DNA of 60,349 bases, the filler included, from Dugesia japonica (Eukaryota): assembly GCA_001938525.1 (NCBI GenBank). It is 6 parts of 6 records of this genome, joined end to end, with 100 filler letters (N's around TTAATTAATTAA, not from the genome) between each part and the next. Parts side by side here need not be neighbours in the genome. Positions count along the whole stretch, not along the records: positions 42,304 to 51,304 come from MQRL01584589.1; 5 more parts are not named here. One strand, given 5' to 3'. The translations under genes and the position numbers were made by a program. Each line of letters opens with the position of its first letter. Positions within the stretch are counted from its first letter, which is position 1. Positions 4,020 through 51,885 of the stretch are shown in pieces. Below the pieces are notes generated by a model, which saw only the letters and a program-made list of their open reading frames with translations, did not search any database and was not told the DNA's origin.

Positions 4020-7000
4020 TAACACTTAGACCAACACAGGGACAAGCAACTAATACTTTTTCAATTATTTCTTATTCAAACTAGATTTCGCTTCATTCTC
4101 ACTAAGTTTCTTTGCTTTAATTTAGAAAATTGATAGGTAAGAACAAGAGTGAGATTGATTAAATTTACTTTAACTAGTAAGATTTAATCTGAAATTTGAT
4201 AGTAGTCGATAAATATTGTCGGAAATTGCACAGTAGTCAATAAAAATTTCTGAAATTTTATAGTAGTCGATAAAAAGTTTATAAAATTGCACAGTAGTCG
4301 ATAATAATTTTATGAAATTGCATAGTAGTTCATAATATTTTGAAAATCCTATGTAAATGAATGAGAAAATAATTCAATTATTGCACAGAAGTCTCTAAAT
4401 TAATAAAAAATTAATTAAAAAACTAATAATTTCAAAAATTAATTAATTAAAAGTTAAAAACATTAATCGAACATTTATTAATAACAAAATAACTCTTCCA
4501 ATTTCTTCAACGATCTATCATAACCTANNNNNNNNNNNNNNNNNNNNNNNNNNNNNNNNNNNNNNNNNNNNNNNNNNNNNNNNNNNNNNNNNNNNNNNNN
4601 NNNNNNNNNNNNNNNNNNNNNNNNNNNNNNNNNNNNNNNNNNNNNNNNNNNNNNNNNNNNNNNNNNNNNNNNNNNNNNNNNNNNNNTTATTTTTTAACAT
4701 AGATAACTTGATGTTACGTTTAGAAAATAATTCCATATCAGTTCTTGATGATAAATCTGGTATTTTAATAGTAGAAATCTCATGAAACATTTCTCTTTGT
4801 AGAATTTCAGCTTTTTTAATCTGATGATTTACTTTGGAATTTGATAACGACTTTTGGATATTGAGAGGTTTTAATTCTTGCAAAACTTTCTAAAAGAAAA
4901 AATTCAAAACTTTTTATTATCATTTTTATTGTTAAGCATTACTTGGCATTTATCTGACTTTAATTTTGATAATTTATTGTTTAAATAATTGATAGTACCA
5001 TGAAAACAACTAATTTCTGATAAAACTTTATTATCAGACTCTTGAATATGATAACTGTTGTGGACTGGAAAATGTCAATTAAATGAAATGAGAGCTAGAA
5101 TGAAGAACAGACCTGATGTGGAGCCAAGATCAAATGAATCTTTATCTTTAGCGTCTGAAATGCGTTTAATATCGGTTTGCATCTGTGATAATTTTTTTAC
5201 TAATTCGGATACTTTTTCACTTTCAGTTCTAAATATAATCCTTTAAATATTTGTATAAGTTATGAAACATTTGGTAATACTATTTTATAATTATACTAGC
5301 CAAGTTATCAAGTTTATCAGGTATCCAAAATGAATTTAAAAAATGAAGTTAAATAAATTTAAGTTAGTGATAATATATTTCACCCACCTGTATTATCACT
5401 TTATCTAATTATAAAGTAAAATTTACTTATTGAACGAATAAAATTATTATTATTATTATAAAAAAATTTATTATTATTATAAAAATTATTATTATAATTT
5501 TTACTCCCCAACATTACATTCTACATATTTTCATTTTACATTAATAGCATTTCAAAAATTAAACTTTAAATGAAGTACTCTTGATATTTTGGATTGTTAT
5601 TGGTAAATTTTTTTATATTTGTAGCATAATTTCTCAACATTTTATTGTTTTACAATCTCCTCTTAATGAATTCAGTCACTCTACTATTGCCATATATTCT
5701 ATTTTTATTAATTATATAGTATACCTAATATAACAATAGAAAAATATATGTAAAAGATAAGAGAATTTTTCTTACTTCTTTTCAAGGTTCTCTAATTTAA
5801 TAATTTTGTCACTCAGTTGTCGTATTTTTATATCCCGACTTTTAATACCGTCCTCATATTTCTTCTTGATATGATTTACTTCTAGAATACTTTCTCCCAA
5901 AGAACTCGATTTCTTTTGTAACTCCATATTAAGTAATGACAATTTTTCATTTTGTTTCTTGATCTCCGAAGGTAAAGATGAAAGGAGGCCACATTTTTCT
6001 CGATAATTACTAGCAATCAAATCTATAGAAGAAGAAGACTGAAATATATTTTCATAAAATGAATAATTTCAAGATTTTAGTACTCGTGTAATTGTCTTGT
6101 CTGTATCATACACTCCGGACTTGAAATTTGCAACGATTTCTCCACTTGATTGCTCTATTGAGTTTAGTTTCCATATTATTTCAACTAAAGAAATTTCGGA
6201 TGAATGTAATTGGAATTTGCAAAGAAGTTCAATTATTCCATTGATTGCTTCATCTGGTATGATATTTTCCTTATATTCATTTATCTTTAACCAATATCAA
6301 AAGAAACTTTCTTACATCATTTAATTGCAACCCATAATCAGCAATCGGTAGCACAATATCGATCATATTTATCGCAATTTTATTCATAGATTGGCAAAGA
6401 ACAGAATCAAATGTAATTTTTTGATTTTGTCTTAAAAATACTAATGAACCTTTCATTTTTGAATAAAGGTTTGTCGAAATGGCTTGCATTTTGATAAGAA
6501 AATCTTTGAGTTGCTTGTCAACAGTCATCTAATATAATTTATAGTAAATTGTATTTTTGAAAATAAATGAGAGATGTAGCACTGATTATTATCTGAGAGC
6601 GTGAAATATCCAAAAACGATAAAGTTCGAATGAGAATTGACAGAATGACAGGGATTCTCTGTAATGGTGAAAGAATTGTTAAAAATTAGATAAAGGCAGA
6701 AAATGAAAAGTTTTTAATTGTTCGGTATAATCATATGATCATCTATTGAGAACGATTGTTCTTTTCTTCAAAATGAAGTAAACTTACTTAACAACTTAGA
6801 TTAAATGAAAATGGAAATATTAAAATATTAGAATCAGGAATTTATAGTTTACCATTTTTAAAGCTCTGCACGATCTAAGTTGAATCATAAATGGAGTTCT
6901 TAAAATATTGAGAAGTTTCTATTTCTCATTAATTTGTTATTTCTGTAAATATTTTCAGCATTTTATGATAAATTTTTCATGTGAAATTATTTTCTAATTT

Positions 7001-7708
7001 TATTCATTACAAATTTCTACTGTAGATAGTTGTTAAATTTTCCATTTTCTGCTTTCATTTAATTTAAATTAAATTAAAACAAAAATAACTATAAAAAGTT
7101 AAATAAAATCTCACATTTCCAATCATCTTTGTAATCCATCTGAGATCGTTAGAGAGACATTCAGAACCTTTCATTAAAACCTTGATAAAGTCATTCATTT
7201 TGATGTTACAATCAGCCGGTTTCGTATTAAATATTTCATCATAAATTTGTTTGAAATATGTTATTGATTGGATAATATTAGAGAAATCTCTGTTGCAATC
7301 GAGATTTTGGTTTTTGATCAAGCCAATTAGCGAATCCAAACTTGTTTCATGTTTTATTATCTCTTTATGGTAATTTGCAATTGTATAAAGAGATTCCGGA
7401 GAACAACACTCAAGATTTCTAATAAATCCATCAATAATTAAAACAAATGAAATTCTACTACATTTGTAATTGTTTTAAAAATCCTTTCCAAATTAATAAT
7501 AATAATTCAGTTTTATACTGAACACTGATATTTTCATGCTTTTCTTCTATGGAACCACCATGTCTAAATCTTCGTTTTTCAGATATCTGAAATCAATNNN
7601 NNNNNNNNNNNNNNNNNNNNNNNNNNNNNNNNNNNNNNNNNNNNNNNNNNNNNNNNNNNNNNNNNNNNNNNNNNNNNNNNNNNNNNNNNNNNNNNNNNNN
7701 NNNNNNNN

Positions 7709-7765
<57 letters not shown>

Positions 7766-8269
7766 TGAAGAAGAAGAAGAATCCTAACGATAATAGCATT
7801 AATGATAATGATAATACTAATAATAATAATAATAAATAGAAATATGAACAGTGATGTTAATAATGTTAATATTAATAGTATAAGTAAGAAATAGTATTAA
7901 TGATAGGAATTTTTGTATATTGACTCTTCCTAATGATAACAATGTTGAGGTAATCATTAAACTGAATAACTATGACATATTATCTAAGGAGTCGAAGCAT
8001 GGTTCGTAAAGTTTATCAACAACGAGGATAATAATGAATAAAACGATATTAAATCTCGATATTTAATATTATAATAATCAATAAATTAATTAATAATTTA
8101 TAAATAATAAATCTCTATATTAAATTATAATAATTATAATAATTATAATAATAATAATCAATAATCAATAATAATAATAATCAATAATAATAATATTATT
8201 AATAGTAATCAATAATAATAATAATAATCAATAAATATAATAATCAATAATAAATAATAATAAATAATA

Positions 8270-8319
<50 letters not shown>

Positions 8320-8369
8320 NNNNNNNNNNNNNNNNNNNNNNNNNNNNNNNNNNNNNNNNNNNNNNNNNN

Positions 8370-8430
<61 letters not shown>

Positions 8431-9515
8431 TTAATAGTAATCAATAATAATAATAATCAATAATAATAATATTATTAACAGTAATCAATAATAATAATAA
8501 TAATCAATAAATATAATAATCAATAATAAATAATAATAAATAATAATAATAATAATAATAATAATATTAATAGTAATCAATAATAATAATAATTAAAATA
8601 AAAACTTACATAATCCAAAATCAAAGATATTTTGTCCATAAATCGTTTTACCACTAAAACAATATTAATAACGTCATATTCACCACCAACTCTCGAGAAT
8701 GTTGTCGGCAAATATTGGGTTATCAACTTGATTTGTAAATATTTCTGTTCGAGATCTATTTTCATCAATTTACCGTCAATATCCTAAAGTTTCATAATAT
8801 AAAATGATAAACATGTATTACATATGTATTATTACTTGTTTTATATCAGCTTCTATTGATTTTTGTTTGGCATAATTGATAATTGAAAACCTACGATTTG
8901 ATTCTTGTGCTCTTTCTATGATTTCATTTTTTCGAGNNNNNNNNNNNNNNNNNNNNNNNNNNNNNNNNNNNNNNNNNNNNNNNNNNNNNNNNNNNNNNNN
9001 NNNNNNNNNNNNNNNNNNNACATTTTCTTGCTGTTTTTCATAGAATGAATTTTGGAGTTTAATAAATTGCTCATTAATACAATCGTATTCTTCGTGTAAA
9101 CTTCTCATTTCTTTGTTTTTAGTTTCTATTACTTCGAGATTCTTATCTTCTATACGATCCTAATTCACAAATAATAAATTTAAAACAAAAATACTAAATC
9201 TACTAATTCGATTAATTTTTTATTCTGTTTTCTCAATTCCTCTTCTAAATTGCCATTAACGAATGTTAACTTATCTACAATAGCTTGTGCATCTGCAGTG
9301 CTATCGACTAAATCTTTCATTTCTTTTAAATCTCGTTCATATTTTTCTAATTTTGTTTTCGACGTCTCCAATTCTGCTTCTTGATAAAATTTTATTTCTT
9401 TTAATATTTCCAACTAAAATAAATATTTCCTTATTTAAATGAGACTGATTACATTTCTAATATAACCTCTGCATCTTTCTTTTTACTAATTTCTTCTAAA
9501 CTCTTATTGTCTTGA
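4020..9515 (-). CDS. DCTN1: Dynactin subunit 1 (p150Glued), multi-exon, 5' part cut off by the scaffold end
   Basis: Exons encode QDNKSLEEISKKKDAE|LEILKEIK...LVDSTADAQAIVDKLTFVNGNLEEELR (cf. [26 protein letters not shown]), YLPTTFSRVGGEYDVINIVLVVKRFMDK (cf. [25 protein letters not shown]) and VANFKSGVYDTD (cf. MQEGEYDAE); GT-AG introns of ~30-60 nt; 3' end approximate. Confidence 0.88.
4172..4335. repeat. ~30-bp minisatellite, probably intronic in DCTN1
   Basis: Five to six copies of (ca/ta)gtagtcgataa..tt..gaaattg. Confidence 0.8.
7709..8592. repeat. (AAT)n microsatellite-rich intron of DCTN1
   Basis: Long AAT runs with internal duplications. Confidence 0.9.
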
Positions 9516-45839: not shown

Positions 45840-46449
45840 AGAAAATTATCATTTTGATTGAATATGTCTATTATCACTCCATAGTCATTTGGACATTGTT
45901 GTGTAAAGTCAAGAAATAAATATCCATGAGGTGTTTCTGTTGCATCTTGAAATGATTCAATCAGAAATTGTATGTTATTTGGATATGCTTGCTTTGCTAG
46001 AAAATCAAAAGCAGTTTAAACTCTAGAATCTTTGAATAACACCAAATATTGCACATTTAAATTGCGGGTTCTATGACTACCTCCTTGATGAAATAGTTTT
46101 TGAGTAATAAATATCGCAGTCACATTAAGATGCCTCGATATCTTTGTGAATAAATTATTGAAATCCTTTTTCTTATTTTTCTCCTGATAAAGATAGTCAA
46201 CAACAATAACATCACCTGGTTTCAATCTTTTACTTTAACTTTTATCGAAATTCTTTATAATTTTCATTTTAATCTTATAAACCTCAGATTTAGTCTTTCC
46301 ATTCTCTTCATCTGCTCCCTATGCCAGTATATGTTTTTAAATTTCGAATTGAATAAATTTGATTTCAATAATTTACTAACAAACAAAGTTTTCTCGCTAC
46401 CACTAGGCCCAAACATTTGATATACTGCTTCATTTCTTAATTTTTTCAT
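45840..46449 (-). pseudogene. Second A32/FtsK-like Polinton packaging ATPase, decayed
   Basis: MKKLRNEAVYQMFGPSGSEKT, GDVIVVDYLYQE, FNNLFTKISRH, HRTRNLNVQYLVLFK and DATETPHGYLFLDFTQQCPND; frameshifts and stops. Confidence 0.9.
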
Positions 46450-46534
46450 CTTATTTTTTGAATTTATTAATAATGCAGTACATATTTTATATTTGTTTTA
46501 ACGTATCAATTAAATTAATTCAATCAAAACTCCA

Positions 46535-46945
46535 ATGTTCCTTATTAATATATTTTTTGTCATTAATCATAGAGATGAAGTGACGCAAGAAGTAACAAAA
46601 ATATGAGCTTTCGAATAGGTAAATATTGACATTTCAAAGTTAAAAGTGGCAAGTATACAATTACTATACAAATTTGAATGTCTAAAATTTAGGATGGTTG
46701 ATATATTATTAAATAATTATATTCTTTTAGAACCCTATAATATTATTCATATGCAAATCGTAATAAATTAGTAGAAATTAGCAAAAATATCAAACTGATG
46801 GTTTGAATCAGAGTTATTTTCTTCTTTAAAATATGGTCTTTTATGTATAAATATGTTTTCATCAGGAAAACTAGTAATACTAGGACTTAAATATTTGAAT
46901 TTCCAAGGTTATTTGGATAACATTATTTCAGATTTATTCATTTGA
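46535..46945 (+). pseudogene. TBP-fold gene (both repeats represented), decayed, head-to-head with the ATPase
   Basis: N-part INHRDEVTQEVTK/NMSFRIGK..KSGKYTI matches 798-983; C-part IN**KLAKISN*WFESELFSSLKYGLLCINMFSSGKLVILGLK matches TBP repeat 2 (YEPELFPGL...IFVSGKVVLTGAK). Confidence 0.7.
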
Positions 46946-47386
46946 TTGAAAGAATTTAGAAACTTTGCAGCACATATGCAATACAAGTACAACTTAATTA
47001 CAAATTATATCAATTTAAATTTAGATATTTAATTATCAAATAATTAAATATATTACGTTGTGGTTTTTTTATTATGTATACAGAGTGTTAGTTAAACATG
47101 GGGCAATCATATATTGCAATTCGTTATTAATTTTCTTCTGAAATATGAATATTAAATTGTCAAGTTTTAAAGAAGAATATATATAAATATATATATATAT
47201 ATCAATTTTACCTGGTCTACTAACATCAGACAAAGAAAAAATAAATTTTGCTCATTTTTTAAAATTTTAGCTTTTTATCTATGATCAAGTGTAAGAACTA
47301 TTCTTCTCTTTAAAAGGTCAGATATTCAAACGTGTTACGCTGCACGAAAATCTATCAGATCAGAAGTGACGGAGAACCGATTCAAA

Positions 47387-51404: not shown

Positions 51405-51885
51405 AGTAATTAAATTACCTTTTATTAATGAGAAATGTAGCCAAATCATGCAAAATATAATTAAAAAATCTAAACTAACACACGATCCAAGGATTATATT
51501 TAAAACACAAGCACCTTTGGGCATACAATTACAGAAACCAAGACAGAATTTTTGTGGTCCCAAATGCATTTGTGATGGTAAAAATATATGCNATAAAAAA
51601 GATATCACTTACAAAATAACATGCATCTTATGTAAGGATACATATATAGGAGAATCATTCAGAGCCATCCGTACAAGAATTAAAGAACATATCAAACAGA
51701 AAGAAAGTAAAGTCTTCAAACAATTTCAAAACAAACATAATGTTTTACCAGAAAATCATCATATTACATGGAAAACATTAGGAACAGGCTACATTTCTAC
51801 ACTTCCCAGAAAGAAACATGAACAAATATTAATTAAAGAGGCTAAGCTCCAGATCAATGTGGTGTTCAACATATATAATAATTAA
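51405..51885 (+). mobile_element. Penelope-like retroelement, C-terminal GIY-YIG endonuclease
   Basis: IKLPFI..., CGPKCIC..C.KKDITYKITCILCKDTYIGESFRAIRTRIKEH ... RKKHEQILIK...IN. Confidence 0.9.

Follow-up and report, generated by a model that had tools for sequence, protein, structure and literature searches.

TBPs encoded by viruses are already known, and a TBP label for one midsize virus is already in print. In the sections available to us of a survey of large dsDNA viruses, viral TBPs usually lose the TFIIB-binding glutamates and bring their own TFIIB, the first glutamate being kept in ~40%; the same sections assign TFIIB contact to two glutamates of the C-lobe and, for the most part, the basic patch used by TFIIA, TAF1, Brf1/2, and Mot1 to helix H2 of lobe 1 (Ravarani 2020; PMC7221094). 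According to the available parts of the respective reports, changes at I194, V203, and L205 in yeast TBPm3 alter TATA specificity (PMC1636458), and late factors of beta- and gammaherpesviruses (UL87) read a variant TATA box of late genes and bring host Pol II (PMC8360532, PMC6541308).

For the virus named above, a figure in Starrett 2021 carries the TBP label, and the accessible portions of that work give no structure, spread, or promoter analysis for it (PMC8502044; preprint 10.1101/697771); one supplement of the work mentions neither TBP nor TATA. A term search of other Polinton papers returned neither 'TBP' nor 'TATA', and a literature search, with subscription papers and bioRxiv supplements outside its scope, found no analysis of a Polinton TBP or of the box described below, and nothing on TBP recognition of TATAAAC or on V122R. 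To our knowledge, there are few if any observations of Polinton particles.

Here, we analyzed a stretch of 60,349 nucleotides of Dugesia japonica DNA (GCA_001938525.1; six joined parts, filler included), which as a whole is called the window. The window is AT-rich (GC mostly 17–30%) and holds two pairs of a small TBP-like gene, which we call mini-TBP, and a packaging ATPase gene. Both pairs are fragments of a multi-copy Polinton/Maverick (adintovirus)-like element, and each has decayed independently of the other.

Two decayed gene pairs in the window

The copy 2 pair occupies positions 45851–46956. Its TBP-like gene at 46562–46956 (+) is decayed, as the preliminary description had observed from the sequence, and is full-length, covering family residues ~5–150. 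Frameshift-aware alignment placed frameshifts near 46596, 46663, and 46940 and stops at 46627, 46769, 46772, and 46796, the last three belonging to the reading frame quoted earlier (IN, two stops, KLAKISN, and a stop), the 'IN' of which lies at 46763 on the + strand. With an X at each break, 62/127 aligned residues (49%) were identical to P0152; the middle, about residues 40–75, is hardly recognizable, and ~3 codons have been lost after the ELF motif. The N-terminal half, from 46562, gave a frameshift-aware score of 74, against 23 ± 3 (maximum 31) in 60 shuffles, and the N-terminal part is alignable to copy 1 at the DNA level, which upholds the resemblance proposed for this part of the two copies. 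Head-to-head with this gene lies an A32/FtsK-type packaging ATPase pseudogene (45851–46449, −; 149/200 identical to P0004) with a frameshift near 46320 and stops at 46237 and 46018. The divergent intergenic stretch between the two (46450–46561) has no TATAAACA on the ATPase strand.

The copy 1 pair lies at 768–1716. Its mini-TBP fragment (768–983, −) contains residues 1–71 only, with one stop at 800, and 47 of these 71 residues (66%) are identical to P0152 and P0146. The packaging ATPase pseudogene beside it (1092–1716, +) carries one frameshift near 1137, within Walker A; its best relative is 83% identical, and Pox_A32 was found in most relatives. Further downstream is the remnant of a core-protein-like small basic gene (1952–2170, +; tblastn E 6e-16 to 4e-18). 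What is likely a separate high-copy repeat, with an internal 32-nt repeat, abuts the cut end of the TBP gene (575–770); summed depth over 575–757 was very high, and behind 770–771 the reads continue unlike the window.

Copy 2 by itself covers the gene in full, and copy 1 just breaks off at 768, so the reconstruction of a TBP core from both copies, as put forward earlier, is unnecessary. The similar spacing reported for the two pairs stood in part: ~100 bp separate the homologous first codons in both copies, and the value of ~85 bp given for it fits only an ATG at 46536.

We scanned all six frames of the window with a profile of 49 intact relatives. It matched 46745–46939 (+) in copy 2 (E 1.2e-15, profile positions 77–146) and 977–756 (−) in copy 1 (E 9e-23, profile positions 2–76); no third TBP-family place in the window was significant, the next best having an E of 1.9. 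By themselves, the window fragments did not reach the Pfam TBP cut-off of 22.9 bits (12.5 and 12.8 bits) and matched solved TBPs only at E 0.25, so their identity as TBPs rests on the intact relatives. The copy 1 fragment as a PDB query retrieved ribosomal proteins and not TBP, and these matches were rejected.

Elsewhere in the window, a host dynactin exon was found at 7067–7474 (−; Pfam PF12455, E 1e-12), and other minus-strand ORFs at 4500–9200 may be further dynactin exons. An ORF with a GIY-YIG domain at 51406–51882 (+; E 3.7e-5) may mark the end of a Penelope-like retroelement.

Separate lineages of a large family

The ATPases of the two pairs are 76.6% identical over 577 nt and are broken at different places, consistent with the divergence and differing lesions noted previously. 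Between copies 1 and 2, dN was 0.18 and dS 1.58 over 152 codons (dN/dS about 0.11). When placed in a tree together with 42 relatives, copy 1 grouped with database proteins and not with copy 2, and the window's two ATPases formed one group in 0% of 200 bootstrap trees. By the dN/dS and the tree, the copies diverged while functional and then decayed separately, in line with the independent decay originally proposed. The window's pairs are two separate lineages and not the product of a local duplication.

In one run from the same organism, 5805 contig pieces were found on copy 1 at a likeness of at least 80%, with 2899 of them <90% alike, and at one position within the copy 1 TBP part 69 contigs differ. 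The family is thus large, and the multi-copy nature claimed for it was borne out; the 5805 pieces and the summed contig depth give no copy number. The window's own mini-TBP and ATPase copies are, by their sequence, dead.

The mini-TBP protein family

We used the mini-TBP exon of a related metagenome locus (L001) as a query, which retrieved 67 proteins among 69 candidates; a profile of these relatives retrieved 499 proteins among 1458, most of those listed being unbroken and 145–160 aa in length. The preliminary description had made its case depend on finding the two TBP halves together in an intact ORF elsewhere, and both were present within one such ORF in >100 database proteins, mostly of 145–160 aa; the N-terminal extension is indeed absent from the intact relatives. 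A wider search returned 3025 matches at E ≤ 0.001, including longer relatives that apparently retain helix H2, so that the family appears from its sequences to be graded. P0259, P0272, P0280, and similar proteins have 160–185 aa, the fixed groove residues common to the family, and a longer linker, in which H2 may be kept.

All 49 members of the alignment matched Pfam TBP (PF00352) at E ≤ 0.001, P0141 reaching 55.7 bits against the cut-off of 22.9, and this match covers repeat 2 only. The family profile also matched solved TBPs (E ~1e-18) through repeat 2 only, and profile-based comparison to a TBP-like protein with two repeats aligned both of them (98%). An AlphaFold model of the intact relative P0141 (pLDDT 94.6, pTM 0.84) had 44 Foldseek matches in the PDB at E ≤ 0.001, every match listed being a TBP, and 148 of its residues aligned with yeast TBP 66–240 (Z 12.1, rmsd 2.9; VIA). 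The predicted fold is a two-lobed TBP saddle lacking helix H2 of lobe 1; between strands 45–51 and 65–77, the model has no helix of at least four residues. The linker in this region has 18–24 residues in 125/128 relatives, and that of yeast TBP has 33. The claim of true TBP homology is therefore sustained by the matches of intact relatives to Pfam TBP and solved TBPs, and the mini-TBP belongs to the TBP superfamily without being a canonical TBP.

Conservation was assessed in 128 relatives of 135–200 aa with no motif filter; these had been retrieved by their likeness to the family, which inflates the following counts. Three of the four intercalating Phe residues are kept (in 128, 127, and 128 of 128), and the fourth is Pro in 126/128, so that conservation of these residues holds for three positions and fails for one. 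The TFIIB-binding glutamates in the loop of repeat 2 are retained, the first as Glu in 123 and Asp in 5 relatives and the second as Glu in 128/128. At the equivalents of yeast I194, V203, and L205, the relatives carry Arg (127/128), Cys (128/128), and Asn (128/128). The yeast labels and numbering used for mini-TBP positions (I194, V203, L205, F99, V122, T124, V71, and N159) are anchored by alignment.

The mini-TBP resembles cellular TBPs, eukaryotic and archaeal (PF00352), in the predicted two-lobed saddle, in both TFIIB glutamates, and in three of the four Phe residues. Unlike these, it is about 25–30 residues shorter, shares ~20% identity with them, is predicted to be without H2 of lobe 1, has Pro at the F99 equivalent, and shows fixed changes at the equivalents of I194/V203/L205, V122, T124, V71, and N159. 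With repeat 1 remodelled in this way, it is not the ordinary compact TBP core that had been envisaged. In a fast tree made without the linker (103/150 proteins after length and motif filters), short-linker forms clustered, with 8 changes versus 23 in shuffled data; the labels are regex-derived and tree support is low, and a single loss of H2 is therefore not shown by this clustering.

Compared with the TBPs of large dsDNA viruses, as far as described in the available sections (Ravarani 2020), the mini-TBP is likewise a virus-encoded two-lobe TBP in which the regulator signature of lobe 1 is lost, and it has structural matches in BFVD; it differs in retaining both glutamates, in the loss of the helix itself, and in belonging to a small element whose partial contigs showed no TFIIB (none among 14 ORFs of L001 and L003). 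The herpesvirus late factors offer an analogue in functional logic for the role proposed below, but in the parts of the reports available they are large proteins of a six-member viral complex, whereas the mini-TBP is a single protein of 150 aa predicted to use host TFIIB. The fold match between the mini-TBP and BcRF1 was weak (E 0.014); BcRF1 and ORF24 are names of such late factors.

Gene content and organization of the element

A packaging ATPase of the A32/FtsK type is present in both copies. A search for its family gave 178 relatives among 249 candidates, with Pox_A32 in most of those listed, and PF04665 was found on most of 120 relatives listed; the window ATPase ORF itself scored 17.5 bits, below the PF04665 cut-off of 22.8. 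Related loci were recovered as six partial metagenome contigs (L001–L006), which represent about three independent elements. In 6/6 loci the ATPase is followed by a small basic, pX-like core gene; as far as each contig extends, there are also an rve integrase with chromodomain and two likely capsid genes, one minor and one major (jelly-roll). The retroviral-type integrase of L001 had an rve match of E 2.6e-15, and matches below cut-off were obtained for the L001 homologue of the core gene (Adeno_PX, E 0.011), for the double jelly-roll (DJR-like) domain of L001 (E 0.039), and for the adenain-like gene of L003 (Peptidase_C5, E 0.024). With an A32/FtsK ATPase, an rve integrase, and a pX-like core gene, and with a likely jelly-roll capsid and a putative adenain-like protease, the related loci resemble Polintons and adintoviruses as presented in the accessible portions of the published account (PMC8502044).

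The window copies are internal pieces flanked by assembly gaps, with no element end located, and contain no integrase, jelly-roll capsid, or adenain protease. DNA polymerase B was not found among the ORFs of L001, L002, L003, and L005 (partial contigs of 2.6–8.4 kb), and the window and the six partial loci showed neither its gene nor a terminal repeat. Searches of IMG/VR viral contigs with the ATPase, alone or as an alignment, and with the TBP alignment, the L001 capsid, or a box-plus-capsid pattern returned no relative. A 25-residue bacterial match from a prokaryote genome scan (L007) was dismissed as chance.

The linkage of TBP and ATPase proposed for the family was recovered on the same contigs in related elements, directly so in L001. 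In this locus, the TBP-like gene lies on the same strand as the ATPase, about 1.5 kb upstream, so the head-to-head arrangement of the window is not universal; in the other five of the six loci (L002–L006, partial contigs), no TBP gene was detected. As a proxy for linkage across 120 ATPases and 142 TBPs, we counted pairs with equal contig size and source, the contigs themselves not being read out, and obtained 18 pairs versus 1.55 expected (maximum 6). Several paired contigs are <2.2 kb, which suggests that adjacency of the two genes is common. Across the 18 pairs, identity to the window copy was not significantly correlated between ATPases and TBPs (rho 0.37, p 0.13).

Several further features of these loci were observed. 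A putative 40-nt GT..AG intron (L001:376–415) splits the mini-TBP gene of L001, most relatives being unbroken, and points to nuclear transcription and splicing of the mini-TBP. In L001, the TBP gene and the ATPase flank a RING-finger gene (L001:1671–2171; zf-C3HC4_3, E 1.7e-6) that is preceded by a box variant. L003 carries a dual-specificity phosphatase (L003:952–1263; Pfam DSPc, E 1e-20), and the start of its contig (L003:1–514) reads by eye like a bacterial membrane transferase and is likely a chimeric join.

A box upstream of element genes

The coding strand of L001, L003, and L005 contains TATAAACA 6, 8, and 6 times, respectively (expected, 1.07, 1.07, and 0.54), and the opposite strand 0 times in each; these counts were reached in 0/300 Markov shuffles for each locus. 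Canonical TATA variants were not enriched in the same three loci. For the wider pattern [T/G]ATAAAC[A/G], 21/25 sites lie 33–44 nt before an ORF start, versus 11–14% of random positions; this pattern was picked after inspection of the data and comes from three independent elements only (L001, L003, and L005). The genes preceded by the box include the ATPase and both likely capsids; the TBP genes of L001 and copy 1 have none upstream. In the window, copy 1 has TATAAACA in the divergent spacer upstream of its ATPase (1056–1063, +) and again in the last codons of the ATPase (1699–1706, +), the next ATG being 37 nt on, as likewise in L001, L003, and L005. Across the whole AT-rich window, TATAAACA occurs at chance level (11 found versus 11.0 expected), and it is absent from copy 2.

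In many cases, the box coincides with conserved codons of the preceding gene (L001:2816 and 5889; L003:3116 and 6186; L005:790 and 3977; window 1699), namely the end of the ATPase and a place near the end of the gene preceding the major capsid, so that promoter and protein would share letters there. RNA reads on copy 1 came mostly from other copies, 924/1095 being <90% alike (X14). They formed no start cluster behind the box and ran in both directions, the strand of the libraries not being established; some run upstream through the box (41 reads loose before 1086). The box is also present in L002–L006, five partial loci with no detected TBP gene, so the link between box and TBP is putative.

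Discussion

In our judgment, the intact mini-TBP is probably the element's own late-promoter factor, reading the box, recruiting host TFIIB and Pol II, and avoiding the regulators of host TBP, as argued from conserved residues and the structural model. Under this proposal, the mini-TBP would be produced first, its own promoter having no box; it would then bind the [T/G]ATAAACA box ~35–40 nt upstream of the packaging and virion genes, and its two conserved glutamates would recruit host TFIIB and hence Pol II. Because the docking helix is gone, it may escape Mot1/BTAF1, TAF1, and competition at the TFIIA site. The loss of one Phe and the many polar substitutions in the groove could make DNA binding weak.

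We consider it unlikely, while still a serious possibility, that a host factor, either host TBP or a Forkhead protein, reads the box and that the mini-TBP gene is accessory, its product having a different target. ATAAACA fits the Forkhead consensus RYAAAYA, the first base of the box may be T or G, and both the boxes in loci with no detected TBP gene and the RNA with no start cluster behind the box agree with such a reader. Yet the fixed strand and the distance of 33–44 nt point more to a core promoter than to an enhancer site, canonical TATA variants show no enrichment, the TBP gene itself has no box, and the DNA-facing substitutions of the mini-TBP are nearly invariant.

It is rather improbable that the mini-TBP is a decoy that damps host transcription, by tying up host TFIIB or Brf1/2 or by blocking promoters, while starting none itself. 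The TFIIB-contact loop is among its best-kept surfaces, lobe 1 has lost H2 and one Phe, and only repeat 2 is seen by Pfam, all of which a decoy would accommodate; however, three Phe and several further residues of the groove hardly vary in either lobe, and the element has a dedicated box. A reading of the box as a polyadenylation or termination signal of the upstream gene, and not as a promoter, has very little probability: TATAAA is a poly(A) signal variant, and several boxes of the tandem loci are located within or right behind the end of the gene before them, but the copy 1 box is in a divergent spacer that contains no + strand gene end, and the spacing is fixed relative to the next ATG. 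That the window pieces are decayed retrocopies of host TBP or chance look-alikes beside a transposon, as the sub-threshold Pfam scores of the fragments might suggest, is refuted by the intact relatives and profile matches, by the 66% (copy 1) and 49% (copy 2) identity to element-type mini-TBPs that are themselves ~20% identical to cellular TBPs, and by the recurrence of the same arrangement twice in the window and again in a metagenome contig.

Returning to the mini-TBP as a late-promoter factor, we tentatively extend the proposal, with somewhat less confidence than doubt, to widespread Polinton viruses: these might carry the smallest working TBP, helix-less and re-specified, which alone would direct host TFIIB and Pol II to a private ATAAACA late promoter beyond the reach of Mot1/BTAF1 and TAF1. 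In keeping both glutamates in an element whose partial contigs showed no TFIIB, the mini-TBP departs from the published pattern of viral TBPs accompanied by their own TFIIB.

The interest of these findings is carried by the mini-TBP family rather than by the window's dead copies, the contribution of which is that a TBP–ATPase pair is carried by two separate lineages within one host genome. Hundreds of natural TBPs without H2 and one Phe, and with new specificity residues, provide a test of the minimum that a TBP requires and of how it is re-tuned. An element-encoded TBP together with a matching box is a concrete candidate for the switch of Polinton virion genes. If the proposal is true, a single gene would act as an early-to-late switch, 'transposons' would be running a timed virion program, and the mini-TBP and its box would constitute a natural orthogonal TBP–promoter pair.
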